Position numbers and translations under genes: made by a program. Shown here in pieces: positions 15,080 through 56,203 of a stretch of DNA of 58,478 nucleotides. How positions within the stretch are numbered: position 1 is the first letter of the stretch; every line of letters begins with the position of its first letter. Origin of the DNA: a virus. Lineage: Duplodnaviria; Caudoviricetes. Where the stretch lies: positions 1 to 58,478 of the IMG/VR virus record IMGVR_UViG_3300021170_000022; one strand, written 5' to 3'. The notes below the pieces were generated by a model, which saw only the letters and a program-made list of their open reading frames with translations, was not told the DNA's origin and did no database searches.

Positions 15080-15424
15080 ATGAATTCAGTACGCATTTGG
15101 CTTTTGCGGTTGGCGGCTATAGCAGCGATCCTCTTCGGAGTCGCATCTCTCTACGATTCCTATCAGGATTTTTCATGGGGACGCCTCGCGATCGCCGAAA
15201 CCGGAGGCCTCTCTTCCATTTCCACCACGATCGTGGGCGAGATCGCAACCCAATCCGAAATCAAGAACCGAGACGGCCGAGCCGCCCAAAACGCCGGCCT
15301 GCTTCTAATCGGCGTCGGCCTGCTTCTTGAGGCGATAGCTGCAGCCTTAAAAAAGCTAACAATCAACCAGAGCCCGGAAGCCGTCGGCCTCGCAGCCGAA
15401 TGGCGCGCCGCAGGAACGCCTTAA
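15080..15424 (+). CDS. two-TM membrane protein
   Basis: Two hydrophobic helices. Confidence 0.65.
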   Translation: MNSVRIWLLRLAAIAAILFGVASLYDSYQDFSWGRLAIAETGGLSSISTTIVGEIATQSEIKNRDGRAAQNAGLLLIGVGLLLEAIAAALKKLTINQSPEAVGLAAEWRAAGTP

Positions 15425-16926
15425 TGGAAAATTGGAAATCCGTAGGACGGAGCCGCAGCAGCTGCGCTTTGAACGGCCCCAATATCCAGGCCGCCCGTTG
15501 TAGTCCCTGCCGGAAAAGCTCCAGGCCAACAGGCTCCTCGAGCTGCCGCGCCACCACCGGCTGTATTGTTCAGCGAGTAATCGCCGCCGCCGCTGTTAGT
15601 GAATGGTCCCGCGCTTAAGGTGACATCGCCATTACCCGCCGCTAAATTATTGATGTTTCCGCTGCCATTTGACCCATACGCGTTCGTCCTGTTGAGCATG
15701 ATCGCACCCGGACTAGAAGGAGCATTCACGCCCCATCCTGTATTTCCATAAACGAGGTTGCAATCCATCGATAAGGACGCTGCACCCAAGAGGGAAGTCG
15801 CAATCGTCACTCCGTCGCTTGAATTGTTGGCGATCGTGTTGTTGTGGAGATCTAACTGGGGGCCCGCCGTGGCTGCAGCCAACCCATGCGTTGCGTTTAT
15901 GCCGTGCACATTGGAAACGATGACATTTCCGATGAATTGTGCGTACCATCCGCCCACGGCAGAGTGCGCCCCAAAGGTAAATCCATCGCCGCCGCAGCCG
16001 TGAATATAGTTATTTTTGAAAATGCCGCCTTCCGTATTGATAATACAGTGGCTCACGGAACCAGTCAGCTCGGAGCTGCGAATAGCTAAGTACTGCATCG
16101 GAAAATCAACCTGATCTTCCCCGTTGACCAGCACGTTACATCCAGAAAGTTTGGAATTCGCAATTGTGAGCCCTACCCAAGTATTCGTGGCGTGAAAGCA
16201 GTCTCCCTTGGTCGCTGCCGTGCTGTTGACGGTAATATTGCAGAACATGGTGTAATTGGACGCGTTCGGCCCATTGTTGAAAATGTTCACCGAGTTCGTG
16301 GAACTCGTGATCAACGGCCTGGTATCGCTCTGCGCTTCGCAGTTCGATATCGTGTGATGGCTTGTCTGGTAGCCGATGAGCGCGTAATTTTGCAGCGTAG
16401 TATTGCCAAGGCTACTCGTTATGGTATACGTGCCAGCCTTGAGATGCCCTATGTTGCCATTCACTGCGCTCGAATAAAACTTTGATATTGTCAACAGCGG
16501 TCCGCCGATCACGCCCACGCAGACATTGCCGCTCGACCCCATCGCGCGATCAAAGGTGCCGGTCCCGGACGCCTGACTGTTTAACTCATAAAGACCAGTT
16601 GAGCAGCCGGATCCGCTCGCAATCAAAATGCAGTTGCCTGGACCGTGAGTAGTGCTCGTGAACGCCGGCGACCCGGTTCCCGTCGTGCCGGTTCCCGTCA
16701 GCGTAATGGTAATCGCCGTTCCCGCCCCCTGACTCTCATCGGTGCCCGGGTTTGCCACAGATGGATCAAAACATCCGGCATTCGTGTCCGCCCCACCGGT
16801 TTGAATATCGAAGTTGGCCGTCGACGCGATCGCCAGCGGAAATCCCAACCTAAACGAGCTGGCCTCAACAACCTGACAGAGCAGGATGAGCCAGATCCCG
16901 AGAAGCGCTTTGAAGTGGTTTTTCAT
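15421..16926 (-). CDS. right-handed beta-helix (pectin-lyase-like) tailspike-like protein with signal peptide
   Basis: Repeating Asn/Ile/Gly rungs (NNYIHGC, GNVIVSNVHGI, NNTIANNSSDG), DYSL...LDIGAVQ C-terminus, hydrophobic N-terminus, 12 mature Cys. Confidence 0.75.
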   Translation of the reverse strand: MKNHFKALLGIWLILLCQVVEASSFRLGFPLAIASTANFDIQTGGADTNAGCFDPSVANPGTDESQGAGTAITITLTGTGTTGTGSPAFTSTTHGPGNCILIASGSGCSTGLYELNSQASGTGTFDRAMGSSGNVCVGVIGGPLLTISKFYSSAVNGNIGHLKAGTYTITSSLGNTTLQNYALIGYQTSHHTISNCEAQSDTRPLITSSTNSVNIFNNGPNASNYTMFCNITVNSTAATKGDCFHATNTWVGLTIANSKLSGCNVLVNGEDQVDFPMQYLAIRSSELTGSVSHCIINTEGGIFKNNYIHGCGGDGFTFGAHSAVGGWYAQFIGNVIVSNVHGINATHGLAAATAGPQLDLHNNTIANNSSDGVTIATSLLGAASLSMDCNLVYGNTGWGVNAPSSPGAIMLNRTNAYGSNGSGNINNLAAGNGDVTLSAGPFTNSGGGDYSLNNTAGGGAAARGACWPGAFPAGTTTGGLDIGAVQSAAAAAPSYGFPIFH

Positions 16927-16933
16927 GGGTTCC

Positions 16934-18370
16934 TCAATTCGTATTCACCTGCAGATATACATTTGTCCAAGTCGCGGTCGAAGGGCTGGTCATCTGAAAA
17001 CAAAATTCCGAACCAGCGGTGACGGTCGTCACCCAACTAGTAAGATTTGCGAACGTTGCATTTGTCGCGGACGAAATCGATGGCGCCGTCCCTCCGCCAG
17101 TCACATCCGCGTATCCTGCAAAACCAGCCGTACCTGTGTAGGACGCGAACGCCACACTATGCACGGCGAAGGTCGCCGAACCCGAAACGTCAGTGTCCAC
17201 GTACCATCCGGCGATCGTGCCGGCGAAGCGCACCAGCGTGCAGTAGGTCTTCGTGCCAGATAGTGCCGCACCGCCACCATCGAAGTGCATCCCAATCTCG
17301 CGGATGTTTCCGTTCGCCGTGCCGGTCGGAGTACAGGACCCTCCCAGAGGGCAGCTCACACCGTTGATCGTGATTGACGTGTTGAACAAGCCGCTGGCAA
17401 AGTAATTTGTCCCATCTGACACAACATAAGCCCACGTGGGCGCCGTAGTAGACCCAGCCGCAAGGGTGAGACTTGTTGTGCCGCCGTTGATATTTTGTCC
17501 GTTGCGAGCAATCGTGACCACGCCCGATCCATAGTTGATGACAGTAATGCATTGGCCGCCTGCAGGCTGTGGACCACCAGAGGCGACCAGCGTGATGGTG
17601 AATGTGCCGGATGCTACGGGAATAGTCTTGCAGCTAGAGAAATCCGCGGCTACAGCCTGGTACGTCGACGTCTGCGCGTTCGCGTTGAACAGCACTACCG
17701 CGCCGGTGCTGGTATTGACCGACGTGACCTTGCTCGTCAGCGCGACAGCGCCGGTCTGGGCAGCACCGCCATCGATCGCTACGCTCGCGACGCCGATGAC
17801 GCTGGCTTCATAATTCGTGCCGTCTGAAACTATATAAGCCTCCGTAGGGGCCGTCGCCGAACCGGCCTGCAGAGAAAGACTCGTTGTGCCGCCGTTAATA
17901 TTCTGTCCGGACCGCGTGATGGTCACGGTACCCGATCCGTAATTGATGACCGTGATGCACTGCCCCGCCGGTGGCTGCGATCCGGAAGCGACGAGTGTGA
18001 TCGTGAAAGTTCCAGAAGCGATCGGAATAGTTTTGCAGCTAGCAAAGTCTGCGGCGAGAACCTGATAGGTCCCCGTCTGTGGATTGGTCGCAAACAGCGC
18101 CACCGCGCCCGTATTCGTGTTCACGCTCGATACGGCTCCGGCAGCTGTGATCCAATCGGCCGCCACCGTGCATCCGCTCGGGTTGTTGCACGCGTAAATG
18201 GCGCCGCCCGCAGTCTGGCACTGCTGGCGATATGCCCCTGTCGTGTTCCCCGGCGTTCCCGCGCAAGCGATCACCGAAGTACCCCCGCTCGATGACGGAG
18301 TCAGCGCCTGCCCAGCAGCCATCACCGCAAAAAACGCCGCAATCAATACTACACTCACACGCTTCATCAT
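16934..18370 (-). CDS. tail-fibre-like protein with signal peptide and internal duplication
   Basis: ...VMAAG|Q; VSSVNTNTGAV-type repeats; two about 110-aa copies ending SDGTNY; 12 Cys. Confidence 0.75.
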   Translation of the reverse strand: MMKRVSVVLIAAFFAVMAAGQALTPSSSGGTSVIACAGTPGNTTGAYRQQCQTAGGAIYACNNPSGCTVAADWITAAGAVSSVNTNTGAVALFATNPQTGTYQVLAADFASCKTIPIASGTFTITLVASGSQPPAGQCITVINYGSGTVTITRSGQNINGGTTSLSLQAGSATAPTEAYIVSDGTNYEASVIGVASVAIDGGAAQTGAVALTSKVTSVNTSTGAVVLFNANAQTSTYQAVAADFSSCKTIPVASGTFTITLVASGGPQPAGGQCITVINYGSGVVTIARNGQNINGGTTSLTLAAGSTTAPTWAYVVSDGTNYFASGLFNTSITINGVSCPLGGSCTPTGTANGNIREIGMHFDGGGAALSGTKTYCTLVRFAGTIAGWYVDTDVSGSATFAVHSVAFASYTGTAGFAGYADVTGGGTAPSISSATNATFANLTSWVTTVTAGSEFCFQMTSPSTATWTNVYLQVNTN

Positions 18371-18424
18371 TCTCAGCCTCCCCTTCTGCCCTGAGAACAG
18401 TCTCCGCCGGAGACTGCTCGCGAT

Positions 18425-18997
18425 CTACTTCGCACCGCCCTGAGGGTCGCGCACCGGCGCGACATGCTTCTCTTCCATCACCGTGACCACCTTTTCCACC
18501 TTCATGTCCGGAGAAGAATCCGGCGTCTTGATGATCTCGGTTTCCTTACTCACAGACAGTTTTGTTTCATTGCTCTCTCCGAACTCGCGCTGGATCTCTT
18601 CTGGCGTAGCCGCCCGAACCTTGGCCCGCGCCAGCGCGCTGACGATGACCGCCGGAATCGGCAAACCAGCCGTGGCGCAGTTCTCGATGATCGACATTGC
18701 CTCATAGACGATAAACGCCAGCGCTGCAATCGATTCGAACTCGAACGGCAGACTCAGAGGTTGCTCTACAATGTGCAATAACCCAAGCAGGGGAAACACC
18801 GCTAGTTTTTTAAACAGGCCGCGTACCATAACGCTGCTGTTCACCGACTTGACCACAACGGCCGCGATGATCCCGCTGACCACATCCAACCCCATGAGCA
18901 TCAGCAGAATCTGGATGGTGTGCGGGATTCTAATCCAAACACCGGTCACGGCTATACTCGCGATCATTATCCATTTAGCAGCGCTGGATGAATTCAT
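18425..18997 (-). CDS. phage holin family protein
   Basis: LMGLDVVSGII, NSSVMVRGLFKK, EAMSIIENCATAGLPIP. Confidence 0.88.
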   Translation of the reverse strand: MNSSSAAKWIMIASIAVTGVWIRIPHTIQILLMLMGLDVVSGIIAAVVVKSVNSSVMVRGLFKKLAVFPLLGLLHIVEQPLSLPFEFESIAALAFIVYEAMSIIENCATAGLPIPAVIVSALARAKVRAATPEEIQREFGESNETKLSVSKETEIIKTPDSSPDMKVEKVVTVMEEKHVAPVRDPQGGAK

Positions 18998-22683: not shown

Positions 22684-23907
22684 TCAGTTATTGCCGGGCT
22701 GGTTGTGCCTCTTGATGTACTGTGGAACGAAACGAGTCTTCAGCGGCGGAACACCGTAAAAGATCATGGCACAAGAAGGCGCGATGGGTTCCCCCAAAGA
22801 CGCAAACGCAGCTGTTTCAAAAGACAAATCGACAGGCAGCAATTTCTTGACAAACGCGTAAGGTCCACCGACTGGGCATTCCCAAACAGCATTTGCTCCA
22901 TCATGCCAATCATCATATGGGAGCAAAATAATTCCATTCCAGAGCGAGCCATAGTTGACGCCATCGGAAGTTCCGAAAGCATTTCCGATTGGAGGTGGAA
23001 AGGTAAAAAGAGTGGAACCAATAACACCAGCACGCGTAACTTGAAAGTACGATACCTGGGATGTCTGGTTATTGGCAGCGTACATAAATGTATGGACCAG
23101 GTCATTTGCCGTGTCCATTATGAGGTTTGCAAAAAAGCTCGGACTCGGTCTGAGTACGATCTGACTACCCCAAGATGCACTACCGATAGAGTACAGTCGA
23201 TAATACGATTTCAGCCCCGTCCCACCTAAATTTCCATTATAGAAAACGCCTATGTCCCCGTTTGCATAAACAACAGTCTGTCCCTTAGAGGCTGCGTTTA
23301 TAAGGATCGGGAAATCCGTTACTGTTCCAAAGGGTGAACTCCACGCGAGCACACCAGAACTCATATCAAATGTGAACAGTGACCACCCAGCTGAAGGAGT
23401 CTGAACAAGGTTTGTAACTAGGCTTGTTCTTCCGTCCCAGTATGGATTGATATCGTTCGTGATCAACGGTGAGTTGCTAGAATCCAGTTCTGACCATGTT
23501 AATCCGCCGTCGGCGCTGCTAAGACATGCGAGATATACGTGCCCTCCAGAAGCCTTAACAACAAATAAAAAATAACGACCTTGGTAGAAAAAACATCCGC
23601 TAGCGTTTTCCCACAGTAACGTATGAAAGCTATAGGCAGTTCCAGGTGGAGGAGCAACTACTACCGGATTAAACGGCGGTCCGTTTTGAAAAAAGTTGAT
23701 ATTGTTATCAAGAACAGCAGTAATCCCTTGCGTAGCCGAGTCTGATGTGTTCACGGAACCAGCGCTGAACTGCCCAATGAAGTGCGTGAACGTGGGATCT
23801 TTGTATATCGCACCTTCTGCTTGCCAAACTCCCGAGACGGGATCTCGGAACGAGCGATATAGAGCGTTGCCGCTCATGATATTAAGCGCAAACGGAACCG
23901 TGCTCAT
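22684..23907 (-). CDS. Asp-box/beta-propeller-like receptor-binding candidate
   Basis: SSADGGLTWS Asp-box; beta-rich; visibly lower GC than flanking DNA. Confidence 0.6.
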   Translation of the reverse strand: MSTVPFALNIMSGNALYRSFRDPVSGVWQAEGAIYKDPTFTHFIGQFSAGSVNTSDSATQGITAVLDNNINFFQNGPPFNPVVVAPPPGTAYSFHTLLWENASGCFFYQGRYFLFVVKASGGHVYLACLSSADGGLTWSELDSSNSPLITNDINPYWDGRTSLVTNLVQTPSAGWSLFTFDMSSGVLAWSSPFGTVTDFPILINAASKGQTVVYANGDIGVFYNGNLGGTGLKSYYRLYSIGSASWGSQIVLRPSPSFFANLIMDTANDLVHTFMYAANNQTSQVSYFQVTRAGVIGSTLFTFPPPIGNAFGTSDGVNYGSLWNGIILLPYDDWHDGANAVWECPVGGPYAFVKKLLPVDLSFETAAFASLGEPIAPSCAMIFYGVPPLKTRFVPQYIKRHNQPGNN

Positions 23908-26900
23908 GTCCTGACCGTCACTCCAAGATCCTGCCCAGGTGTCGTCATTCCAACCTGCGTGACGATGAAATCGATCCAGCCTCCCTCGGCGAACACTGCA
24001 AAATTGCCATGATCGATGACTGGCGGTGCACCGCCGGCAGCAAGCTGTAATTGGCCGTTGGCATCGAAAGGGTCGACCACAACCGGGAGCACATTCGGCG
24101 GCCAGTCTCGGCCAATGCCAGCGTAGGGAGCCCAGCCGCCGCTGTGGTAGGGCATATTTCGACCTTCGGGAGGATTGCCGGCTAAGTACGTGTCGAAAGC
24201 GCCATCGCCGAACTTCAATATCTCCAGGAGCCCGGCCGTACTCCTATCCGGAGTGATGTACACGACGTACACGATTACCGTTGCATCACCGCTCAGGCCA
24301 GTCGACGGCGTGGCCAGATCCGCGCTCATCGCGGTAACGCTCTCGGGCGCTCGAACCTGAATCCGCTTGTCCGCGACCGTGCCGACACGGCTCCCGCCGG
24401 CTCCAGCAGTCAGCGGCACACCCAGTGCTCCGAGATTGTATTGGGCGCCGTTCAGTAGCCGAAGCCCCGGAGCCGGTGGCGCATCCGTCGCACGCGACAA
24501 ATTCAGGGTGTACAGCGGACCGATGCCATTCGATCCAATTGCCTGTGCCGTGACCGCAAGCGGCATGCGATTGGCAAATGCCCACTCATAGACGGCCGGC
24601 ACGCCAGTAGCTCCGCTATTCGGAGTCGCTTCGGAGAGTGCGCGCGCGGATGTGGCCCTGAAGAATGTGCCGAAGCTCGCCTTCATCGTGCTGCCAAATT
24701 GAGCTTGGCTGGTAGGCACCCCGCCACCGGGATTGCGCTGAACGGTCAGAGCCCCATCGTCCCCAACGGCTATGATTAGATCAATTTCATAATTCGTGTC
24801 GTTCCAGACGATATAGTCGCCAACACCGAAGCCTTTTCCCAGCCTGCTGCTTCCGCCATAGCTCGGCACAAAGGTGTAGGGATCGGTGACATCGTCGATC
24901 GCTCCAATTCCCCACCACCCCGAGTCGCTCTCGTCCACCACAGGAGCCTCGAACTGCACCTGCTTGACCGCCCCGATTGTCGAAATCTCAGTGACCTGAA
25001 GATCATTGATCGTCAGCGTCGCATATCCCTCGCGCACTACTGTGAACGGAGTCCCGCTGAGCGCAGCCTGGCTGCCGAAGACAAAGACCATCCGGAACGG
25101 CCCATCGCCATCCTCGGACTCCTCACCCGTGACGTCGATCAAAAATGCCGCCAGAAAAATGGACTGCTGCGCGAAATCGCTAATCGGCAGCAGCACTGTC
25201 ATATCCTGGAATGGACTCGCCGTATCGATCTTGGTCGAATCGATCACATAAGGCCAGCCGGCTTCTACAATGATCCACACCGAATCCGGCCCGATCGTGA
25301 TCGGCGAATCCAGGATGTGCGTCGTTCCTGTGTTGGCGATGATGTTCGCCTTAGCCCCCCGCGAGGTTCCTTTGATCACTCGCAGCACCATGCCGCGCTC
25401 CAGATCCGGCGTTAGCCCGCTGTGCGGCGTTGGCGTTCGCGTATTGAAATCGTAATTGAGCGCATTGCTCCAGCCGGAATCGGTGATCCGGTAGGGATCC
25501 GCCGAGTTGTTATAGCCGAGAGTCGAAACCACGAAGACGTCCCCCGGCAGCACGATTCCATCCGCAACACGATCCAGCCCGAACGTTCCCGTGCTCGGGT
25601 CATACGAAAGGATGTTCGCGGCCCAGAACGGAATACTCGATAGCGGCAAATTAGCGTTGTCCCGGCCAATAATGATGAGCTGCCGCCCAACCCAGTTATC
25701 CTCGCCGGTCGGATCCCCAGCCTCCTTCGAGACCACGGAGCTACCGACCACGCTGTCGACCGCAGCACCGATGACACCTAGGTGGTAGCCGATGGTCGCC
25801 TTCAGCCGGATCGTCCGCAGATTCGGATTCGGTGCCGCATACGTCGACCGCAGCAGCGCCCCATCCGGAGGCGAGGACGGCGGCGACGCAACGAAGCCCA
25901 GCAGCGTGATCGTTCCCGGGTTGTATCCTCCAACCGGAGATGTAGGCGTCAGTGCTCCGGTCTGCTGGGCCCCCATCACATCCACTAGAAAATAAGCGTA
26001 GATTGTGAAATTGACCAAGCCGGGGAAGTTCGGCCAGGTTACATCCAGCTGCACCGAATTGATCGCGGCCGGCGGAGAAGACTGCGGAATCTCCACCGGA
26101 AATACTGCCGATGGCAACGTGTAATTTCCGTTCCCGTCGTCCGCCGTGACGCTGACATACAGGATGATCCCGCCCTGGATCGCACCGCCGGTTGGAACGA
26201 CTCTCGCCGCCGTGATGATCGGCGCCGGACATCCATCGATGACCTCATTGACCGGCTCGACTCCCGTAACATTCAGCCGCGGAAGCGCCCCGCCATCCGC
26301 CAGCGTGACCTGCGCACCGATCAGGTTCGAATACCCGAGCGCCACGTCAAAGGTGTGCTCCAGCGGATACATCGCGTCGTCCGCTGCCGCCTGAACCTCG
26401 TATGGCTGCCACTGCGGTGGAATCGGGAGCGGGGTATAGTTCAGGCTCACCCAGATCGACGGCACGCCAGCGCGATTCACCGAACGCAGCTCGAGCACGT
26501 ATTGCGTACCAGGGAGAAGCACCGGCAGCGGCATCTGCGTGACGCTGTCATCCACCGTCCCTAGTGAGATCCAGATCCCCGGCGGGCTCGCGATCAGTTG
26601 ATAGCGGCCCTGGATCGTCGTGACATAGGGATCCAGCGGCGCCGTCCAGGCTAGCGCCGTCCCGCCGCTGTCGTCGAAAATGACGTGCAAATTCGTCGGA
26701 GGGTCCGGCGTGAAGACCGTGTTCGGCAGCCCAGGATACTGGAATCCCTGCGGACTCAGCTCCTCAATGATCTCCCAGTCATAGACCGACGGATCCGTTT
26801 CCTGAACATCGATCTCGACCCCCAGCAGCACGATCTGTGCGCCGGCATCGTTCTGCTTTTCCAGTTTGAACCGTGATGCCAGCACCTCGAGCAGTTTGTC

Positions 26901-29945: not shown

Positions 29946-30359
29946 TTAATCGAAGATGACGGTGAGGTTTGTAGCGCCGCTGGTCAACACGCAAATCCCG
30001 TTGGCGAACGATTGCTGAAACTCGATCGTGAATGGATTCGACACCGTCGAAGGTAACGTGATCACAGCCTTCGGATTCGTCGACGGCGTCCCCGTGCAGC
30101 TCGCCGAAGCCAGATCGAACAGTTTGATCGTCGCGCTAGCCACCTCGGTGGTAACCGTGATTCTTCGAAGCGTCCCGGCAGTGGCCTTCACAGCCGTGGT
30201 AGCCGCCGCGATGATCATCGCCGAATTGGAAGCCACAGGCTGTACCGTCCACGTGGCGGATTGCGACACAGGAGTCGCGTTTGCGGATGGATTGAGATCG
30301 GCCCGCGTCGACGCGACCAGTAGGATCAGGATGACTACGACCATCTGGAAAATCTTCAT
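29946..30359 (-). CDS. putative virion protein with signal peptide
   Basis: ...VASTRA|D; VKATAGTL, FANGICV; two Cys. Confidence 0.7.
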   Translation of the reverse strand: MKIFQMVVVILILLVASTRADLNPSANATPVSQSATWTVQPVASNSAMIIAAATTAVKATAGTLRRITVTTEVASATIKLFDLASASCTGTPSTNPKAVITLPSTVSNPFTIEFQQSFANGICVLTSGATNLTVIFD

Positions 30360-40615: not shown

Positions 40616-40620
40616 TGCGT

Positions 40621-42238: not shown

Positions 42239-42241
42239 AGG

Positions 42242-42769: not shown

Positions 42770-43275
42770 TTTCGGTACTCCCCTGTCGTGATTACCGCTC
42801 CCACTTGAGGCTGCGATCCGCTGATGAATGTGATCACGCCTCCGCCGGCACTACTCGCGGCGACTGTATATTGTGCACCCTGTCTTTGATAGATGCCATT
42901 CACATAGAGCGAAAGGCTTGTCGATGGATTTGGGGCAGCAGATATAGTGAAGATCAGATTCACGCCGTCGATCGTGCCGCCAGGAGTCTCCGGTGGAGAG
43001 AAATTCAGCGGCGTACTCGATCCACCGATTACGCGCAAGGTAGGCGGCTTCGTGGAAGGATCGATCTTGAATCCTATAGGGTCAAACTGCACGCAGGCGA
43101 ATCCAAGCCCAGTTCCCAGCGATGAGCTAACCGGCACCACGACAAAGACGTAGGCCGGGACGCCCGGAGGCACAGCAGTCGGACAGGAGTTGAGCTGCCA
43201 CGGCTGCACCTGGGCATAAATGGAGGCCGATGCCAGCAGCAGAACGATGAGCAGGAAAACGTTTTTAGCTTTCAT
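42766..43275 (-). CDS. putative virion appendage protein with signal peptide (paralogue of the previous gene)
   Basis: ...SIYA|Q; PGGTIDGVNLIF...APNPSTSL.LYVNG; two Cys. Confidence 0.72.
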   Translation of the reverse strand: MKAKNVFLLIVLLLASASIYAQVQPWQLNSCPTAVPPGVPAYVFVVVPVSSSLGTGLGFACVQFDPIGFKIDPSTKPPTLRVIGGSSTPLNFSPPETPGGTIDGVNLIFTISAAPNPSTSLSLYVNGIYQRQGAQYTVAASSAGGGVITFISGSQPQVGAVITTGEYRK

Positions 43276-43298
43276 AGTTCTAAATCTCCTTTTCGCGA

Positions 43299-44081
43299 TC
43301 ACAGCAAGTCACTGAATAATCGGCGAGCCCGATCGGCAGGAATCTGCTGCCGGCGGCTACGGCCTCGAAATAATGGATCCATCGCGCTGCCCAGATTCAC
43401 GTAGGTCCGTTCGGGAAAACGTTCCCAGCACTGAATCGCCGGAATATTCCCCGCCATGCCGGCGCCATACAGCAGCACGTCGAAGTCGCGAGTTATCAGT
43501 TCATCGGTAAGGGCGCCGGTGTGCGCCAATAGATTTTCCATTGGCGTTTCGATAAATTCCGCACCGAGCATCCTCGCTGCGCCAGCGTTTCCAGCCGGGC
43601 CCATGAACATCTTCCGCCGCGGATCTTCCTTGACAGCCCGATAGAAATCGACCAGAGCAGCCGACTCTCTCATCAGCAGCAACGCCTCGAAGTGCAGCCA
43701 GGTCGGATCCGCATCGCCCACCAGCTCGGCGTAGTCTTCTGCGTAGCGCGAATGCTCCGACAGCGAATCGAATGAAGCCGAAAGCCAGTCGCCAACAAAT
43801 GTGTTCGGACCATTCACCACGCTTTCCCAACACCGCCGCAGCTCTGCGCCGAGGAAATCGGAGTAAGCCTCGCGATCGCACGTCTGCCCGCGCTTTCCGC
43901 GAATGCACTCCAACGCGCCATCTCCATAGCGAACAAAGAAGAATGGATCCCGCGCGCGGATCTCAGCTGCCAGGATCGTCGCACTTGTATCCGCGTTGAC
44001 GGTCGCGTATCGCGCCGGCGCACTATTTTTGGGAATTATATACTTGACTCCCGCACGGGAGTAATCTACAATGGTTGACAT
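43299..44081 (-). CDS. GT-D-like (DUF1792-like) glycosyltransferase; 5' end altered by the IS
   Basis: PFFFVRYGDG, LYGAGMAG, NLGSAMDP. Confidence 0.68.
   Translation of the reverse strand: MSTIVDYSRAGVKYIIPKNSAPARYATVNADTSATILAAEIRARDPFFFVRYGDGALECIRGKRGQTCDREAYSDFLGAELRRCWESVVNGPNTFVGDWLSASFDSLSEHSRYAEDYAELVGDADPTWLHFEALLLMRESAALVDFYRAVKEDPRRKMFMGPAGNAGAARMLGAEFIETPMENLLAHTGALTDELITRDFDVLLYGAGMAGNIPAIQCWERFPERTYVNLGSAMDPLFRGRSRRQQIPADRARRLFSDLL
44044..44072 (+). promoter_or_regulatory. IS promoter with palindromic spacer
   Basis: TTGACT-N17-TACAAT; ACTCCCG-CA-CGGGAGT inverted repeat over the spacer; ATG 8 nt downstream suggests a leaderless mRNA. Confidence 0.7.
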
Positions 44082-44451
44082 GAAAACAACTCCTTCCGTT
44101 CACACCACACCGGGTCCGTGGGAAGTTCGCACTGGACAGAGAACTACTTTCATCGTTCAACCGCATCAGTTCATCGAATCCGGCGTCTATGTTGCTGAAG
44201 TTTCGCCTCAAGCTGCTGGCGCTGATGGACGGCCAATCCCCGAACAAAGAGCCGCCGATGCTCGAATGATTTCCGCCACGCCCGATCTGGCTAAAGCGCT
44301 TCGCGATCTTTACATCTGCTTTGGAGATCGCGAAGGTGAATCCGAATGGTGGGAAGAATGGGCGGATATTCCAGGAATTGACACGTGCGAGGTCCGTAGG
44401 ATTTGCCTCGATAAAGCTCGCGCTGCGCTTGAAAAAGCAGGGGTGTGCTGA
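44080..44451 (+). CDS. IS passenger hypothetical protein
   Basis: HTTPGPW ... ADARMISATPDL..AL motif common in small phage proteins. Confidence 0.75.
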   Translation: MKTTPSVHTTPGPWEVRTGQRTTFIVQPHQFIESGVYVAEVSPQAAGADGRPIPEQRAADARMISATPDLAKALRDLYICFGDREGESEWWEEWADIPGIDTCEVRRICLDKARAALEKAGVC

Positions 44452-45378
44452 ATGTCTCGCTCTACAATCAGCACCTTTAAACTCTTCGAACTGTTCCCCG
44501 ACGCCGAGTCCGCGCGAACCTATCTCGAAGGCAGGCTGTGGCCCAATGGACTGGCCTGCCCCGAGTGCAAAACCTCGGATCGGATTACGACGCGCAAGGC
44601 CGGTTTCTACCGCTGCAACGCCTGCGGGGATTTCGATTTTACCGTCCGAACCGGAACGATTTTCGAGCGGTCGCACATCCCGCTTAATAAGTGGGTCTAT
44701 GCCATGTATCTGCTCGTCACTGCTCGCAAGGGAATCTCTTCGATGCAGTTGGCTAAGGAGATCGGCGTTACCCAAAAGTCCGCTTGGTTCATGCTTTCCC
44801 GCCTGCGTGAGGCTTGCGGCGATGATTCGGGCATCGATAAGTTGCGCGGGACGGTCGAGGTTGACGAGTGCTTTGTGGGTGGCAAGGAAGCCAACAAACA
44901 CGAATCCAAGAAACTGCACGCCGGTCGCGGCTCCGTCGGTAAGGTTGCGGTTTTGGGGCTTAGGGAGCGCGGCGGACGGACACGGGCAAAGATCATTGCC
45001 GACCGCACCATTCAGACGATCCAAGGTGAGATTCATGCAGGCGTCGAAGTCGGCGCTCAACTTTACACCGATGAGCACGTTGCCTATACAGATCTGGACG
45101 GACTGTTCTTTCGCCATGACACCGTGAACCACTCGGCAGGCGAGTACAAGCGTGGCGCGGCGCACACGAACGGCATCGAGTCCGTATGGGCGGTCCTGAA
45201 GCGTGGGCTTCACGGCGTCTATCACCACGCCAGCCCGAAACACCTTGGACGCTACGTTGATGAGTTCACCTTTAGGCTGAACGAGGGGAACGTCGGGCGA
45301 CACACACTGGAACGCCTTGACTCGTTCGTGGACCGGGTGTCCGGCAAGCGGCTGACTTACGCTAGGTTGACCGCATGA
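44452..45378 (+). CDS. IS1595-family transposase
   Basis: CPEC...CNAC zinc ribbon, HTH, VEVDECFVGG, YTDE, VNH, HTNGIESVW. Confidence 0.96.
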   Translation: MSRSTISTFKLFELFPDAESARTYLEGRLWPNGLACPECKTSDRITTRKAGFYRCNACGDFDFTVRTGTIFERSHIPLNKWVYAMYLLVTARKGISSMQLAKEIGVTQKSAWFMLSRLREACGDDSGIDKLRGTVEVDECFVGGKEANKHESKKLHAGRGSVGKVAVLGLRERGGRTRAKIIADRTIQTIQGEIHAGVEVGAQLYTDEHVAYTDLDGLFFRHDTVNHSAGEYKRGAAHTNGIESVWAVLKRGLHGVYHHASPKHLGRYVDEFTFRLNEGNVGRHTLERLDSFVDRVSGKRLTYARLTA

Positions 45379-45542
45379 AGCGCAAGCGGACCAATCGCTT
45401 GACATTGGAGCAACGGTTGGCGAGGGCGCGTCAAATCGCCGAGGATAACGCCAAGCGCCGATGCCCCGATTGCGGGCGTCTATGCCGGTGGACAGCCGGA
45501 AACTACGGAATGCGTGCTCAATGTGAGCACTGCGGAGGCTAA
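45375..45542 (+). CDS. IS passenger zinc-ribbon protein (55 aa)
   Basis: Manual translation; CPDC ... CEHC; ATGA overlap with the transposase stop. Confidence 0.6.
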   Translation: MKRKRTNRLTLEQRLARARQIAEDNAKRRCPDCGRLCRWTAGNYGMRAQCEHCGG

Positions 45543-45671
45543 ATGAACAAACCTGTTCCTCCCGAACTGGACCGGATAACCGACAAGGTTTTGGCATACA
45601 AGCCGAAGCCAAAGACGAAGGCCGCGAAGCGGCGCAAGCGAAAGAGGCAACGCGATGCAAAGAAAGGTTAA
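45543..45671 (+). CDS. IS passenger basic peptide (42 aa)
   Basis: MNKPVPPELDRITDKVLAYKPKPKTKAAKRRKRKR...; stop abuts IRR. Confidence 0.6.
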   Translation: MNKPVPPELDRITDKVLAYKPKPKTKAAKRRKRKRQRDAKKG

Positions 45672-45694
45672 CGGGAGTCATGTATATAAATCCC

Positions 45695-46246
45695 CTATTT
45701 TTGAGCAACACAGCCATATCCAAGCGGGAAATTGAAAACGCCCAGCGAAACACGAGCGCGCGGTTCGTGGACAATGACCGAAAACCCAAAGTCACGCAGT
45801 AAGCGCTCCATGCCGGCCTTCGTGAACCGCCATAGATCGGAATCTTCGACCTCGTCCCAGTTCGTGACATAGGTCAGGATCAGGTGGCCACCGGGACGCA
45901 ACCACGCAGCAAAGCCGCGGAGCAGCTCTGGCACGTGTTCGATGTACTGCAGCACCTGGTTGCACATGATCGCGTCCAGCGGCCCCATCGCGGGACTGCC
46001 GTTTAGCCCGTCCCCGATTTCGAACGGAATATACTGGCCGCCCTGCACGAGATCGCTGTATGGCATCTTTCCGCAGCCAAAATCCAACACGCGGCCCTGC
46101 AGATACCGCCGATGCTTTTCCATGAACTGGCGGATACTCGCCCGCTCGATCTGCCTGACCTGGTCGAACCCGGCGAAGTCCCGATCCAGATCGCACTGAC
46201 TCGCGCCGTCAAGCTCCGGCGCCCGCAGGTACCGCAAGCTGATCAC
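45695..46246 (-). CDS. class I SAM-dependent methyltransferase
   Basis: VLDFGCGKMPY, DAIMCNQVLQY, LRPGG. Confidence 0.9.
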   Translation of the reverse strand: MISLRYLRAPELDGASQCDLDRDFAGFDQVRQIERASIRQFMEKHRRYLQGRVLDFGCGKMPYSDLVQGGQYIPFEIGDGLNGSPAMGPLDAIMCNQVLQYIEHVPELLRGFAAWLRPGGHLILTYVTNWDEVEDSDLWRFTKAGMERLLRDFGFSVIVHEPRARVSLGVFNFPLGYGCVAQK

Positions 46247-46839
46247 GCCAGCTTCCTCCACACGCCGACCAGCGTCCTACACGGAAACCCATCCAAATCC
46301 TGATCCAGAATCACGCGACGCTCTTCGAACAAATTCGTATAAGAAAGATGCTTGTCCAGCTTCTCTTCCGTCAGCGAATGATCGTGGATCAGGTTGAGCA
46401 GCTCCGGAGGCCTCAGATTGACATGGAGATAAAACCTCCCGCCTGGCTTAAGCAATCGCGCCACCTTTAGCACGACGTAAAAGTCCATCTCGCCATGATC
46501 CAGCGCATTGGTCGTCAAGATCGCATCGAACGTCTCGTTTGTGTCCCAGCGTTCGAAGCATTCGTCGACCTGGCGGATGTCGCCCCGGTCCTCGAGGATG
46601 CCGGCCGCATGATATACCGGGAACAATGGATCGACCGCAAACTTAAGATGGGCGTCTAGATATGGCAACAATCCCCAATGCGGGCCCGTACCGATCTCCA
46701 GAATCTGCGCGTGGCCCCTCGGCACCGTGATCCCGAGCGCCTCCAGATACTGCTTGAGCTGCGCTCGCTCATCGCCCATATCGGCACGAAGCCAATGCTT
46801 CAGCTCGAGCAGATCCTTGTGCGTGAGCGTGAGGCTCAT
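46243..46839 (-). CDS. class I SAM-dependent methyltransferase
   Basis: ILEIGTGP, AVDPL, FDAILTTNALDH, LLKPGG. Confidence 0.9.
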   Translation of the reverse strand: MSLTLTHKDLLELKHWLRADMGDERAQLKQYLEALGITVPRGHAQILEIGTGPHWGLLPYLDAHLKFAVDPLFPVYHAAGILEDRGDIRQVDECFERWDTNETFDAILTTNALDHGEMDFYVVLKVARLLKPGGRFYLHVNLRPPELLNLIHDHSLTEEKLDKHLSYTNLFEERRVILDQDLDGFPCRTLVGVWRKLA

Positions 46840-47345
46840 TTCACAGCCTCCAGGATCACCATAATTTTATGGCGTTCAGGAGCGTCCGGCGCATACTGGA
46901 TCGGCGTCCAGTTTTTTCCGCTTCGCCCGCCAACGGTTCGGAACAATGCCGTGACCCCCATCCCCGGCCCTAGGCGTCCGCGCTCCCCTCCTCGGTGGTT
47001 CCACTCTTCACAAAAGTAATAACGGGTGTCCGCCGTCCATACCGAAACATGTGTCGGATCGACCCAGGGAGCAACCCCGGGAAGGCACGGAACGTACAGG
47101 TCGAGCTTCCCGCCTGGCCGCAGCACCCTATGCGCTTCATTCAGGCACCAGATGATCCCTTTGTTGCCAGGGAATTCGGCGTTGTCCAGGTGTTCGAACA
47201 CATCATGCGCAAAAATCTCGTTGGCGCTCGAATCCCCCCAGGGCCACGGCTTTCGCAGATCCGCAATCACATCCGCCGGCGCTACGCGGTCGACGTTCAC
47301 ATAGCCGGGCCTATGATCGTCCGAACATCCGAGATTCAGCTTCAT
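46836..47345 (-). CDS. class I SAM-dependent methyltransferase
   Basis: KLNLGCS, YVNVD, HDVFEHL, RVLRPGG, DPTH. Confidence 0.9.
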   Translation of the reverse strand: MKLNLGCSDDHRPGYVNVDRVAPADVIADLRKPWPWGDSSANEIFAHDVFEHLDNAEFPGNKGIIWCLNEAHRVLRPGGKLDLYVPCLPGVAPWVDPTHVSVWTADTRYYFCEEWNHRGGERGRLGPGMGVTALFRTVGGRSGKNWTPIQYAPDAPERHKIMVILEAVK

Positions 47346-48022
47346 GCCCCCGCGCTCCATGCGTACCCCGGGACTCCAGCAAACCCGGGAACTTTCTGCC
47401 AAGGACCGCCCGAGGTCCGCCGCGGGCTATTGTTCCCGGGATGAATCGTCGCCACCATCAGATCGCCGGCGTCAGCGCTGGCCAGCTGCCCGGCGTTCGC
47501 CGCTTCATTGCTGAACAAAACGTCCGAACCGACCTGCATCGCCGAAAACCGGTGCTTCTCCCACCAATCCCGCCGGAAGCACAGCGATGTCCCCATGGCG
47601 AACGTTGGCGGACCTGGATATTTCCACCAGTCGCGCCCGTCGGTAAACATCATCGTGTGGTAACCGGTCACCGCCTTGCCGCTTTCCTGCAGCCGCTGGA
47701 CCTGGTCCGCCACGCGGCCGGGAGCGCTATAGTCGTCGTCGTCCCACTTGCACACGATCTCCGTCTTCGAAAGCTCGCAGCACAGATTGAACTTCTCCCC
47801 ACTGGTCCGCGGCCGCTCGGGATCCCGAAGCGTGCACAGCGAAATCCGCAGATCGTCTTTCGGGATCAGATCCCCCACTTCTTCTCCGTCCGCGATGATC
47901 AGCATTCTCAAATCCGCGTAGGTCTGCGCCTGAAAGCACGCGATCGCCTTCGGCAGCCACCGCCGCCGATTTCGCGTCGGACAGAAGCACGTGACGCTCG
48001 GATTCGCGTTCATCTCATCCAT
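47342..48022 (-). CDS. family 2 glycosyltransferase
   Basis: PTRNR..WL.KAI.CF..QTY, IIADG, KWDDDD. Confidence 0.9.
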   Translation of the reverse strand: MDEMNANPSVTCFCPTRNRRRWLPKAIACFQAQTYADLRMLIIADGEEVGDLIPKDDLRISLCTLRDPERPRTSGEKFNLCCELSKTEIVCKWDDDDYSAPGRVADQVQRLQESGKAVTGYHTMMFTDGRDWWKYPGPPTFAMGTSLCFRRDWWEKHRFSAMQVGSDVLFSNEAANAGQLASADAGDLMVATIHPGNNSPRRTSGGPWQKVPGFAGVPGYAWSAGA

Positions 48023-55373: not shown

Positions 55374-55397
55374 AATTCAGTTCTCCTTTTTTGTGAT

Positions 55398-55718
55398 TTA
55401 TTCCCCGCGGGCCGTCCTGGCCGAATGGCACGAATGGCACAGCGAAAGACAGTTTGATTCCACTAAACGCAATTTCGGATACTGAGTGATCTTCCGGATA
55501 TGATGCACTTCAGTCGCGGCGCGCTCACAGTCCGCGCACACAGGATGGCGCCGCAAGAACCAGGCGCGAAATCTGCGCCAGATTGCGTCATATCCCCGCG
55601 CTGATGAATTTCCACGCCAGGAGTCCGGTTCTCCGGCGTGTTCCGCGCAGCGTCCGGATCGAAGTGCGTACTCTCCGCATCCCGGGTGAATACATGGCCG
55701 GACTGGAGCATCGGGCAC
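55398..55718 (-). CDS. HNH endonuclease (packaging-associated type)
   Basis: RPC.HPGC, RGYD..W, HPVC..C, EVHHI, N..SLCHSCH...TARGE. Confidence 0.92.
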   Translation of the reverse strand: MPDAPVRPCIHPGCGEYALRSGRCAEHAGEPDSWRGNSSARGYDAIWRRFRAWFLRRHPVCADCERAATEVHHIRKITQYPKLRLVESNCLSLCHSCHSARTARGE

Positions 55719-55720
55719 CC

Positions 55721-56203
55721 TTATTGACCATTCGTTCGCTCAACTTCATCCCACAGCAGCGTCATCTGTACTGTTCCCGAAATGGAATTAGTCCGAAACG
55801 AGTAATTTCGTGGCTGCGCCTTGAGCATCTCCAACCCCGCCAGGTTGACCAGGATCGATGTGCCGGCCGAAACCTGAAAAGCTTGAGACAGAATAGTTCC
55901 GCTTCCCACATTGCTCCCGGTGAAAACCAGTACGCCGGCGCTCGGGGCCTCCTGGGTGGAACTCGCGGCGGTCCCGGCGGTCGCCGTCGCAGCGGACCCA
56001 TCCCTTTCGACCTGCACCGTGCAGGCGACGGAGCAATAGATACTTACTGAACGCAGGATGGCGTGAACGATCGGAGTGGCGGGCTGCTGGACGGTCAAAA
56101 CGGCGGCCGACGAGCTGACGGTCGCATTGTAGACGGTCGAATAGTGAAAACTTTGGCCGTAAGCTGCACCAATCGCTACAAGCCACAACAAAATTCCTTT
56201 CAC
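55721..56203 (-). CDS. secreted beta-rich protein in the packaging module
   Basis: MKGILLWLVAIGAAYG|Q; CSVAC pair; AAGGAGG RBS. Confidence 0.7.
   Translation of the reverse strand: MKGILLWLVAIGAAYGQSFHYSTVYNATVSSSAAVLTVQQPATPIVHAILRSVSIYCSVACTVQVERDGSAATATAGTAASSTQEAPSAGVLVFTGSNVGSGTILSQAFQVSAGTSILVNLAGLEMLKAQPRNYSFRTNSISGTVQMTLLWDEVERTNGQ

Follow-up and report, generated by a model that had tools for sequence, protein, structure and literature searches.

Why would a tailed phage, whose particle is built in the cytoplasm, provide a whole series of proteins encoded among its late genes with leaders for export? This question is raised by the stretch of DNA analyzed here (58,478 nucleotides; hereafter, the window), which comes from a soil phage that probably infects Acidobacteriota and that is temperate, as indicated by a tyrosine integrase gene detected in a family search of the window (positions 4427-5740). 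A sequence-only reading of the window had listed ten open reading frames (ORFs) beginning with basic-hydrophobic-small-residue leaders. All ten are present on the minus strand and the leaders were confirmed, each opening with 1-3 basic residues, continuing with an uncharged hydrophobic stretch of 10-20 residues and ending in a small-residue site. The ten ORFs and two additional ones are given below as read from the translations, along with homologs for SP501, SP478, SP241, SP175, and SP178b and AF2 models for SP478 and SP241 (the slash marks the predicted cleavage site).

15421..16926, minus strand: SP501, predicted beta-helix protein, leader of about 22 residues, Ser at +1, 12 mature Cys
16934..18370, minus strand: SP478, leader A-A-G/Q, 12 mature Cys
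29946..30359, minus strand: SP137, leader, Asp at +1, beta domain of about 95 residues, 2 Cys
30364..31044, minus strand: SP235, 226 aa from an internal ATG, leader, 2 mature Cys
40621..41010, minus strand: SP178a, 129 aa from an internal ATG, leader F-A/Q, 2 mature Cys
41079..41528, minus strand: SP159, 149 aa from an internal ATG, leader S-A/Q, 3 mature Cys
41513..42238, minus strand: SP241, leader F-G/Q, 6 mature Cys
42242..42769, minus strand: SP175, leader A-A/Q, 4 mature Cys
42766..43275, minus strand: SP178b, 169 aa from an internal ATG, leader Y-A/Q, 2 Cys
55721..56203, minus strand: SP160, leader Y-G/Q, 2 Cys
14579..15013, plus strand: further leader ORF, 144 aa, site A-N-A/Q, 2 mature Cys
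404..622, minus strand: possible further leader ORF, 72 aa, uncertain

The leaders were assessed by eye and with our own scripts. For the four listed ORFs with an internal ATG as the true start, the coordinates are those of the corrected genes; Shine-Dalgarno-like motifs lie 5-10 nt upstream of eight of the ten leader-including starts and are weak at 41010 and 42238. A canonical small-residue site at -3/-1 follows the hydrophobic core in nine of the ten proteins. The claim of Gln at +1 in eight proteins stands, with an Ala-Gln or Gly-Gln junction read in 8/10, or in 7/10 if the alternative site of SP235 is taken, where Met occupies -3 of the Gln site and a better fit to the rule is offered by an A-G/S site four residues upstream; the residue at +1 is Ser in SP501 and Asp in SP137. 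A crude leader rule, which misses four of the ten and also catches the holin and other membrane proteins, is matched by 11 of the 59 window ORFs of at least 100 aa, compared to 80 of 1614 ORFs from a set of 77 prophage loci, most of them proteobacterial (Fisher P 2e-4), and 15 of 654 ORFs in 80 viral contigs (P 1.5e-6).

Alignment of homologs showed that the leaders are kept across families: among the matches listed, they are present in 93 of 119 homologs of SP478, 110 of 150 of SP241 and 67 of 119 of SP501, and in the first two families, Ala, Gly or Ser is followed by Gln at the junction in 66/93 and 68/110 of the leader-bearing members, respectively. The leaderless homologs begin exactly where the mature N-terminus would be. 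Judging from these sequence features, the ten ORFs and one or two more very probably encode real substrates of the Sec pathway and signal peptidase I, and the leader-bearing proteins would, very probably, mature outside the cytoplasm. The Gln at +1 may mirror a preference of the host signal peptidase. The ORF at 14579..15013 is read from the other strand and is not part of the late operon, and family searches with it gave no match.

The mature Cys counts reported earlier (12, 12, 2, 2, 2, 3, 6, 4, 2, and 2) were reproduced, with an even number in nine of the ten (binomial P 0.011 against an expectation of 0.5; P 0.023 against the 33 even counts among 60 other window proteins). Homologs gain and lose Cys as pairs, such that two columns have, for example, 23 members with both Cys, 25 with neither and 0 mixed, and another two columns 26, 17 and 1, respectively. 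In the SP501 family, the Cys108-Cys136 pair is tied to the leader, being present in 23 of 28 leader-bearing relatives vs 3 of 32 leaderless ones (P 8e-9), and two rarer pairs are confined to leader-bearing members. Thus, for the proposal that these proteins are exported and disulfide-folded, there is comparative support from the kept leaders, the common register, the paired Cys and the leader-tied pair, from which we infer export itself. The total Cys number is not higher in the leader-bearing SP501 relatives (mean 6.7 vs 8.5 in leaderless ones), which counts against an exported set.

The leader genes of the late operon are packed tightly, with overlaps or gaps of 3-27 nt, among the following features.

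18425..18997, minus strand: holin (PF05105, E 6.6e-23; phrog_199)
23904..28634, minus strand: J-like central tail fiber, leaderless, 1576 aa (phrog_5616 and phrog_31; fn3)
37727..48022, minus strand: island separating the genes for head closure and tail terminator (family searches)

The leaderless J is the conventional host-recognition protein of the phage, and a second leaderless fiber gene is present in the window (ORF 22684-23907). Scans for promoters and terminators in the late operon gave results at chance, with none standing out as separate, so that expression of the leader genes in the lysogen is not indicated. The GC3 of the leader genes (0.635) differs little from that of the remaining genes (0.666; P 0.07).

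Bodies of the fiber, spike or decoration type had been claimed for the leader-bearing proteins, and this held for about six of the ten, by virtue of the folds of SP241 and SP478, the beta-helix of SP501 and the J-tip domain of SP175 and SP178b; no sign of such a body was seen for SP178a, SP159, and SP160, and for SP137 and SP235, the likeness is limited to viral clusters that resemble them in language-model and structure searches. SP501, the final gene on the late strand, appears to belong to the right-handed beta-helix family: many of its 151 homologs contain the PF13229 Beta_helix domain, which is common to phage tailspike depolymerases and secreted bacterial glycan lyases and hydrolases, and some contain NosD. 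SP501 itself has no Pfam match at E<=0.01 and no match among 50,697 deposited phage genomes; its beta-helix is probably of the sugar-cutting kind. Among the 119 homologs listed, 51 are leaderless, and at 36 viral-contig loci with an SP501-type beta-helix gene, 27 are leaderless (as called from a stop codon within 22 codons upstream), 4 have a leader, and 5 are unclear. Like phage tailspike beta-helices, leaderless relatives sit in structural modules, namely, in L217, after the tape measure gene, a 991-aa ORF and a 358-aa ORF, and in L197, after a 674-aa fiber.

SP478 combines a Cys-rich N-terminal part, two beta-domain repeats of about 100 aa and a C-terminal jelly-roll-like domain (AF2 model, pLDDT 71.6). 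The repeats share their fold with leaderless phage proteins, the accessory domains of a capsid spike, a baseplate and tailspikes (VIA Z 10.3, 10.0, 9.9, and 9.4), and the model matches a tail fiber at Z 8.3. SP478 has 308 homologs and 304 BFVD matches at E<=0.001, and weakly matches phrog_10330 (E 5.5e-4); the family is absent from 301 sampled Acidobacteriota genomes and hence is not a common host gene.

Among the five tandem island genes, SP241 (154 representatives at E<=0.001; pLDDT 84.6) has three co-varying Cys pairs and comprises a receptor-binding-protein-type beta-sandwich (residues 27-146) and, C-terminal to it, a small module that contains a single Cys pair. Its best 11 VIA rows are phage fibers or receptor-binding proteins throughout, with the cyanophage A-1(L) tail fiber (Z 8.8) and a phi812 baseplate protein (8.6) ahead of Mtd (5.9), the phage 1358 receptor-binding protein (5.3) and the HFTV1 tail fiber (5.1); residues 27-146 superimpose on the A-1(L) fiber (8kec) with an rmsd of 2.7 A over 88 residues. 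The leaderless comparators (8kec; phi812, 9eui; Mtd, 1yu0-4; phage 1358, 4l92; CBA120 TSP4, 7rej), solved in virions, have N-terminal particle-binding parts, whereas SP241 has a leader and no such part. SP175 joins an N-terminal part containing a Cys pair to a C-terminal domain (about 75 aa) shared with its paralog SP178b (40% identity). This domain ends the J protein of the related prophage G001, where SP178b matches the extreme C-terminus in tblastn (43% over 58 aa, E 1.5e-9); the C-terminus of J in the window is unrelated to it. SP178a and SP159 are likewise paralogs (41% identity, E 1e-23).

The remaining proteins are less distinctive. SP137 lies in the slot that separates the distal tail protein from the hub protein, and the ESM Atlas clusters nearest to it contain hypothetical viral proteins with lengths of 93-178 aa; SP235, which shares this slot, has a Gly/Ser/Thr-rich body whose C-terminal ~100 aa align with viral clusters of 93-115 aa in an Atlas structure search. 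SP160, flanked by the large terminase and HNH/portal genes, found no relatives in sequence and family searches, and the related L001 and L103 lack a homolog at the corresponding place.

The leader genes are variable, exchangeable cassettes. G001 has nothing in the SP137/SP235 slot, where the prophage G002 carries an unrelated membrane ORF; the island is kept in part in G001 and G303, the latter with a different leader ORF of 337 aa in the slot; and a soil contig about 88% identical to the window lacks SP159, skipping from 40968 to 41649 with 171 other letters instead. The viral record G304 encodes homologs of SP501 (76% identity), SP175 (53%), SP241 (80%), and SP178a (82-86%), all full length and with leaders, in one block beside a serine integrase. 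At E<=1e-5, it has no other protein in common with the window except for a 55-aa piece, and the replication genes differ; given that the record is 81% complete according to CheckV and that no structural genes were recognized in it, its virion may yet resemble that of the window phage. G001 and G002 also contain leaderless fiber or spike ORFs of 219, 376, and 807 aa.

The reading that we consider best, tentatively and with a probability of about 0.42, is that the exported proteins form an accessory, exchangeable toolkit directed at the host envelope and are not core components of the virion. Its building blocks would be host-recognition modules (a receptor-binding-protein shoulder, tail-fiber and spike accessory domains, a beta-helix, and the J-tip domain) in which a host-type leader replaces the virion-anchoring N-terminus. 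The proteins would be synthesized alongside the late gene products and exported to the periplasm, where the leader would be removed, the Cys pairs oxidized, and the N-terminal Gln able to cyclize; held there until released by lysis, they would target the envelope of the infected or lysogenic cell, binding or cutting its glycans or receptors. Several observations count against such a toolkit. Timing with the virion genes, as implied by the late-operon position, fits a virion role equally well; the leader-bearing forms are the majority in their families, and some relatives reach great lengths (1307 and 1549 aa), which is much for decoys; the identity of mature and leaderless N-termini implies that a docking function could be retained; and reaching the outer face of the outer membrane from the periplasm requires an extra step, for which no candidate was found.

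The sequence-only reading had proposed that the exported, disulfide-bonded fibers and spikes meet the cytoplasm-assembled particles at lysis and dock onto them or, alternatively, that they act at the cell surface as receptor blockers. Docking would amount to virion assembly in two compartments. It could account for the packing in the late operon, the fold types, the leaderless SP501 homologs within structural modules, the identical register of the N-termini, the predominance of leaders in the families, and the leader-bearing pair of SP478-like and beta-helix genes that G002 keeps next to its tail-fiber genes. However, literature searches turned up no known precedent; SP241, SP175/SP178b, and SP137 are bare distal modules that lack any part for anchoring; close relatives differ in the presence of leader genes; SP160 sits between terminase and portal genes; four full-length proteins recur in the otherwise dissimilar G304; and the window already encodes J. 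Because of the variable cassettes, the bare distal modules and the coexisting leaderless fiber genes, the comparative pattern does not appear to favor loading at lysis, which we regard as unlikely, and the receptor-blocker alternative seems to fit somewhat better, both being equally hypothetical.

The odds seem poorer still for lysogenic conversion, whereby exported adhesins or glycan-remodeling enzymes expressed from the prophage would act together with the glycosyltransferase island to alter the surface or matrix of the lysogen, to the benefit of the host. The temperate lifestyle, the location of five leader genes in an island with glycosyltransferase, methyltransferase, and PIG-L genes, the movement of the cassette between phages, and a similar role proposed in the available text for five Porphyromonas phage genes (PMC10367356) are consistent with this scenario, but no separate promoters or terminators stand out, the SP478 family is missing from the sampled Acidobacteriota genomes, and the mature proteins are not enriched in the Bacteroidota O-glycosylation motif or in N-x-S/T. 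Uncleaved signal anchors tethering lysis-timing or envelope-disrupting factors to the inner membrane are highly improbable: although SP478 and SP501 directly follow the holin, Pfam and PHROG searches recognized no lysozyme-type endolysin in the window, the G304 cassette includes an ORF with an endolysin-like match, and the C-terminal domain of SP478 resembles PBSX XepA (PDB 6i56) at Z 7.7, inside the tool's stated noise range, the small-residue sites and recurrent Gln junctions point to cleavage, and eight of the ten genes lie away from the lysis genes.

Tailed phages are known to encode proteins with signal peptides or membrane anchors that act at the envelope of the cell producing them and close off receptors or prevent DNA entry, such as T5 Llp, Cor, lambda Lom and Bor, HK97 gp15, and Streptococcus Ltp, and the respective genes are often located in or beside tail genes. 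To our knowledge, none of these derives from receptor-binding or fiber modules, and they occur one per genome, not ten. PADLOC, PHROGs, and NCBIfam searches revealed no sequence or family link between the window proteins and these or other known exclusion proteins.

Like SP478, XepA is a late-region protein encoded beside lysis genes, in its case in a prophage; it was historically labeled "exported", according to the available text (PMC6834076), and it appears in the accessible part of "Non-classical protein secretion in bacteria", which deals with extracellular proteins lacking a signal peptide (PMC1266369); its likeness to the C-terminal domain of SP478 is structural, with Z in the tool's common range. 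Parallels are also found in prophages of Porphyromonas gingivalis, which, in the text available, carry five genes without a known function whose leaders conform to the Bacteroidetes Q-rule (PMC10367356; Q-rule, PMC5837995), read by the authors as an adaptation to the general secretion system of the host that might also affect the outer membrane. These phages, too, are temperate and use leaders of the host type for signal peptidase I, with Gln at +1, but have five such genes in Bacteroidota (PMC10367356), compared to ten or more in the window phage with its probable Acidobacteriota host, where about six of the proteins are built from fiber, receptor-binding or spike modules, with families that mix leader-bearing and leaderless forms. 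The word Acidobacteria is absent from the available main text of the Q-rule paper (PMC5837995). If the toolkit reading is correct, this phage would deploy exported host-recognition modules to exclude competing phages and to save its burst from loss on debris.

The window spans an entire virus record of 58,478 bp and represents a temperate siphophage of the HK97/lambda kind. All its late genes are carried by the minus strand, and no tRNA genes were detected in the window.

Layout of the window (leader, predicted Sec-type signal peptide; − and +, strand)
Late genes (−), in order: small and large terminase, portal, ClpP-type protease, HK97-fold capsid, adaptor, head-closure genes, tail terminator
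Late genes (−), continued: major tail, tape measure, distal tail protein, hub-type proteins, 1576-aa J-like fibre, lysis region with holin
Early genes: tyrosine integrase, primase-polymerase, ParB, SSB
15421..16926 (−): leader ORF SP501
16934..18370 (−): leader ORF SP478
23904..28634 (−): J, the leaderless J-like central tail fibre
29946..30359 (−): leader ORF SP137
30364..31044 (−): leader ORF SP235
37727..48022: island between the head-closure and tail-terminator genes
40621..41010 (−): leader ORF SP178a
41079..41528 (−): leader ORF SP159
41513..42238 (−): leader ORF SP241
42242..42769 (−): leader ORF SP175
42766..43275 (−): leader ORF SP178b
55721..56203 (−): leader ORF SP160

Among named genomes, the nearest large terminases come from a Blastocatellia MAG (62%) and a Terriglobia MAG (51%), the remaining 78 terminase loci retained being at most 51% identical and almost all from Proteobacteria; every match to deposited phages is below 60%. 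Given that these nearest terminases, as well as syntenic prophages (G002 in the Blastocatellia MAG and G001 in the Terriglobia MAG), come from two acidobacterial lineages, the host of the phage is probably an acidobacterium. The public runs listed as matching the window are three soil DNA runs, with no RNA run among them. Several other genes of the phage deserve mention. In the early region, a 99-aa protein (10679-10978) clearly contains the RNA-recognition motif RRM_1 (E 1.5e-14). The portal and prohead protease genes flank a ferritin/Dps-like gene together with a MarR-like helix-turn-helix ORF (52231-53227). The lysis region (18425-22646) encodes, besides the holin, a patatin-like phospholipase and an ORF weakly similar to YkuD (E 0.008), and no lysozyme or spanin was recognisable there. 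A patatin-type ORF (GGGxRG motif, by eye) is also found downstream of the G002 prophage tail genes (L193, 12375-13352).

The sequence-only reading had assigned leaders to ten late-operon ORFs, and n-, h- and c-type regions are indeed seen in each of them. Under criteria for Sec export and signal peptidase I cleavage (basic n-region, uncharged h-region of 7-20 residues, small residues at -3 and -1), applied by eye and with our own script, n- and h-regions were predicted in 10/10 and a canonical -3/-1 site in 9/10; in four of the ten ORFs, the true start is an internal ATG. Shine-Dalgarno-like motifs are located 5-10 nt ahead of eight of the ten leader-including starts, which argues against true starts downstream of the leaders, the possibility on which the initial proposal could have foundered. 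An [A/G]-Gln junction is present in eight of the ten proteins, and the mature cysteine counts (12, 12, 2, 2, 2, 3, 6, 4, 2 and 2, in coordinate order) agree exactly with those originally given. SP235, one of these eight, has Met at -3 of its Gln site and a better-fitting site four residues upstream. A further leader ORF was identified on the plus strand (14579-15013) and perhaps another at 404-622. By one crude rule, 11 of 59 ORFs in the window are leader-like, compared with 80/1614 and 15/654 in two backgrounds. Inspection of the ten proteins by eye revealed neither a lipobox nor a C-terminal sorting signal. Taken from the sequence, export and periplasmic folding of these proteins are predicted with good support.

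Three of the proteins have relatives enough for the leader to be examined as a family trait. SP478 has 308 homologues at E<=0.001; among the 119 matches listed, 93 are leader-like, 19 leaderless and 7 ambiguous, and Gln is the first polar residue past the hydrophobic core in 73 of the 93. For SP241, with 154 representatives, 110 of the 150 listed are leader-like, 77 of these with Gln, and for SP501, with 151 homologues, 67 of the 119 listed are leader-like and 51 leaderless. Across all three families, the leader is kept as a feature but not as a sequence. In leaderless SP501 homologues, the initial Met stands right where the predicted cut would leave the conserved N-terminus of leader-bearing members, so that the leader is a lineage-specific addition or loss at a fixed joint; this comparison is the one that the sequence-only reading had put forward as a check. 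In a set of 36 viral contigs retrieved with an alignment of ten leaderless SP501 relatives, the beta-helix gene lacks a leader and has a stop at most 22 codons upstream in 27, carries a leader in 4 (L196, L205, L226 and L229), and is preceded by a longer open frame, leaving leader status ambiguous, in 5. Under a laxer second rule, which yields many false hits and misplaced sites and was used for this rough contrast only, neighbours of leader-bearing beta-helix genes carry leaders more often than other neighbours (14/77 vs 44/556, P 0.0095). A leaderless ORF of ~100-116 aa always lies directly upstream of the beta-helix gene (match at ~10001) in L197, L198, L200, L209, L211, L218 and L226, the last being a locus whose beta-helix protein bears a leader; the window has no such ORF. 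Searches of 50,697 deposited phage genomes with SP501 and one leaderless relative (tblastn) gave zero matches; the SP478 family was not found in 301 sampled Acidobacteriota genomes but is present in G002, and no relatives of the 260-aa island protein, the hub protein or SP160 were found in viral contigs.

Cysteines vary in pairs, and in the SP501 family one pair follows the leader. Cysteine columns are gained and lost pairwise in the families of SP241 (both/neither/mixed, 23/20/3, 23/25/0 and 43/3/4 for three pairs), SP478 (7/17/1, 26/17/1 and 7/25/2) and SP501 (26/31/0). In an alignment of 60 SP501 homologues, Cys108 and Cys136 occur together in 23 of 28 leader-bearing but only 3 of 32 leaderless members (P 8e-9, P values here being inflated by relatedness); two rarer pairs are confined to leader-bearing members, 6 and 4 of them, respectively. 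Within the window, leader proteins contain 2.29 Cys per 100 aa vs 1.37 in other proteins. However, the mean total of Cys in the SP501 family is higher in leaderless members than in leader-bearing ones (8.5 and 6.7, respectively, with equal parity), which speaks against a simple leader-disulfide story.

The Q-rule, under which exported proteins carry Gln at +1 that is cyclised to pyroglutamate, has been described for Bacteroidetes, the word Acidobacteria being absent from the text of that paper (PMC5837995); a report on Porphyromonas phages notes five leader genes that obey the rule (PMC10367356). Among leader-bearing homologues, 66/93 for SP478 and 68/110 for SP241 have an [A/G/S]-Gln junction, which is not typical of the SP501 family. 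In a crude count on host proteins, which scored Gln immediately behind a -3/-1 site where the hydrophobic run ends, Gln occurs at strict leader sites in 13/21 cases in G001, 5/17 in G002, 8/18 in 19 other Acidobacteriota genomes and 11/33 in proteobacterial loci. G001 and G002 pooled do not differ significantly from the control (P 0.33), and elevated Gln at +1 is suggestive in G001 only. Gln at the leader junction is far commoner in the phage families than in any host sample. A glutaminyl cyclase domain, Glu_cyclase_2 (PF05096), was identified in both G001 and G002 (E 1.5e-98 and 5e-95) but, because it was also matched in 3 of 14 control genomes, is not specific. Together, the G001 count and the cyclase in both acidobacterial MAGs hint at a possible Q-rule-like habit beyond Bacteroidota, in Acidobacteriota or their phages.

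As for the bodies, the suggestion that they are fibre, spike or decoration domains holds for SP241 and SP478 by fold, for SP501, a member of a beta-helix family, and for SP175 and SP178b through a common domain; it is a lead for SP137 and SP235, and SP159, SP178a and SP160 are left without fold evidence. Comparison with solved structures covered SP241 and SP478. The AF2 model of SP241 (pLDDT 84.6) has no Foldseek match in the PDB at E<=0.001, the best rows being a cyanophage tail fibre (E 9e-3) and Mtd; in BFVD, 2 rows reach E<=0.001, and receptor-binding protein, minor tail and tail fibre are frequent row names. In the VIA comparison of residues 27-146 (Z 8.8, 8.6, 5.9, 5.3 and 5.1), every one of the top 11 rows is a phage fibre, baseplate protein or receptor-binding protein. 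The SP478 model (pLDDT 71.6, with the N-terminal 70 residues below 50 and unreliable) has 304 BFVD rows at E<=0.001, with names including collagen repeat, Mtd N-terminal domain, chaperone-of-fibre domain and tail fibre; in a wide VIA search, its two repeats match capsid-spike, baseplate and tailspike accessory domains (Z 10.3-9.4) and its C-terminal domain a tail fibre (Z 8.3). A minority of SP478 and SP241 homologues contain collagen repeats, BppL_N, Phage_depo_C, GDSL esterase or SO2946-like_C domains, any Pfam match being found in 6/52 and 13/57 of those scanned, respectively.

SP175 and SP178b share a C-terminal domain of ~75 aa that forms the extreme C-terminus of J in G001 and occurs twice in the next, leaderless 219-aa ORF of that prophage; the C-terminus of the window's own J differs. 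The nearest ESM Atlas clusters of SP137 and SP235 are viral hypothetical proteins (93-100% viral), and some of these look-alikes are only 93-115 aa, the size of the domain alone. In SP241, SP175 and SP178b, no particle-binding N-terminal part was recognisable, the distal module following almost directly after the leader. Searches of the ten proteins against Pfam, PHROGs, NCBIfam and PADLOC produced a single weak PHROG match. A neighbour clustering that linked SP478 and J to the beta-helix cassette was dropped, given that its links were transitive via collagen-like repeats, and SP478, compared directly with the 358-aa fibre of L217, scored E 1.5 (BLASTP).

The distribution of the leader genes is patchy. 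The slot that separates the distal tail and hub protein genes contains four ORFs in the window, two of them with leaders, none in G001, and one unrelated membrane ORF in G002 and its metagenome twin L273. In the tail-tip modules of more distant relatives, a leader ORF of 246 aa separates the tape measure gene from that of the distal tail protein (L275), three leader ORFs lie upstream of the distal tail protein gene (L277), or there is what looks by eye like a leaderless relative (L276). At the head closure/tail terminator island, G001 has three small genes only and G303, a relative in which the island is partly conserved, a different 337-aa leader ORF; a 28-kb soil contig that matches the SP178a and SP241 genes at ~88% identity lacks the SP159 gene. 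A viral record of 48.8 kb (G304, 81% complete by CheckV estimate) encodes homologues of SP501 (76%), SP175 (53%), SP241 (80%) and SP178a (82%) as one block adjoining a serine integrase. Its only other match to window proteins at E<=1e-5 is to 55 aa of ORF 44023-45870. The window lacks equivalents of the polymerase, helicases, topoisomerase and thymidylate synthase of this record, in which no structural genes were recognised among the 38 ORFs scanned of 50 with at least 110 aa. Inside and beside the block, at 1480-2175 and 6291-8123 of this record (L285), are a 231-aa ORF matching an endolysin or tape-measure lytic domain and a 610-aa ORF with a BNR-type S-x-D-x-G-x-T-W motif (by eye). In G002, a 677-aa leader ORF, with a C-terminal domain 39% identical to that of SP478, precedes a beta-helix ORF of 533 aa that also bears a leader, an order shared with the window. 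Presence or absence of the leader genes varies between otherwise syntenic relatives, one of several traits of morons, which are late-operon inserts with expression of their own. Promoter and terminator scans of the leader genes were at chance: consensus promoters numbered 6 vs 5.4 expected and 12 vs 8.7 expected in two regions, with the proviso that acidobacterial promoters may differ, and terminators 11 vs 11.3 expected in one region and 13 vs 17.9 in the other. GC3 is 0.635 in leader genes vs 0.666 in other genes (P 0.07).

The island also carries glycan genes, namely, a GT2 gene (47342-48022), two methyltransferases (46243-47402), a PIG-L deacetylase (38709-39263) and two weak GT2-like ORFs, one faintly matching dolichyl-phosphate glycosyltransferase, and parts of it recur in G001 and G303. 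Their targets could be virion proteins, exported proteins or the surface of the host. In the mature leader proteins, the Bacteroidota O-glycosylation motif D-[ST]-[AILVMT] (5 vs 6.4 expected) and N-x-[ST] (27 vs 28.9 expected) show no enrichment. Residues 168-481 of ORF 44023-45870 (615 aa, 19 Cys) are 41% identical to an ORF of L002 that lies beyond its prophage core. Short soil contigs of three runs accumulate on this ORF in large numbers and with raised depth, especially over 44.3-45.7 kb; the ORF is perhaps mobile or widely shared. The leaderless 407-aa ORF directly after J (22684-23907; GC 0.475 and GC3 0.456 vs ~0.58 and ~0.66 for the genome) looks like a recent import and is perhaps a host-range cassette.

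We tentatively read the leader proteins as an accessory, host-directed exported toolkit (probability about 0.4). This reading is favoured by the variable and transferable cassettes and the coexisting leaderless fibres, by the bare distal modules with a leader in place of an anchor, by the J-tip domain of another phage type, and by the one gene located between the terminase and portal genes. In the textbook view, all parts of tailed phages are made in the cytoplasm, and exported phage proteins are known singly, as lysis or exclusion factors. An alternative that we regard as unlikely is tailed-phage assembly in two compartments, here and in a large uncultured group from soil. In such a scheme, Sec export of the fibres and spikes would be followed by periplasmic disulfide formation and pyroglutamate capping and then, only once the envelope breaks at lysis, by docking onto cytoplasm-built particles. 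Consistent with docking, the leader genes are embedded in the late operon with no space for signals, the mature N-termini are in register with leaderless forms, leader forms are the family majority, very long leader-bearing relatives exist, and the conserved SP478-like/beta-helix pair adjoins tail fibres in G002. Fibre attachment in vitro is known for T4. A literature search that covered few subscription journals returned no description of leader-bearing tail fibres or receptor-binding proteins in tailed phages. Somewhat less probable still is lysogenic conversion to the benefit of the host. Familiar exclusion proteins of phages are Llp, Cor, Lom, Bor, HK97 gp15 and Ltp; none of 22 proteins matched known exclusion or defence families in PADLOC (E<=0.01), nor did any in NCBIfam except for one weak glycosyltransferase match. 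That the leaders are uncleaved anchors is very improbable, a canonical cleavage site being predicted in all but one of the ten proteins.

Families of host-recognition modules exist in two forms, cytoplasmic and (as predicted) exported, with a Cys pair following the exported form, and ten or more exported-form genes are found on one 58-kb phage. On either the toolkit or the docking reading, annotation pipelines that equate a signal peptide with "not structural", or a fibre fold with "virion protein", misfile such genes. If the leader proteins join the virion, this would be a new assembly route; if they serve as tools for receptor binding and glycan cutting, soluble or periplasmic, they would be a new means by which phages shape the host surface and compete in soil.
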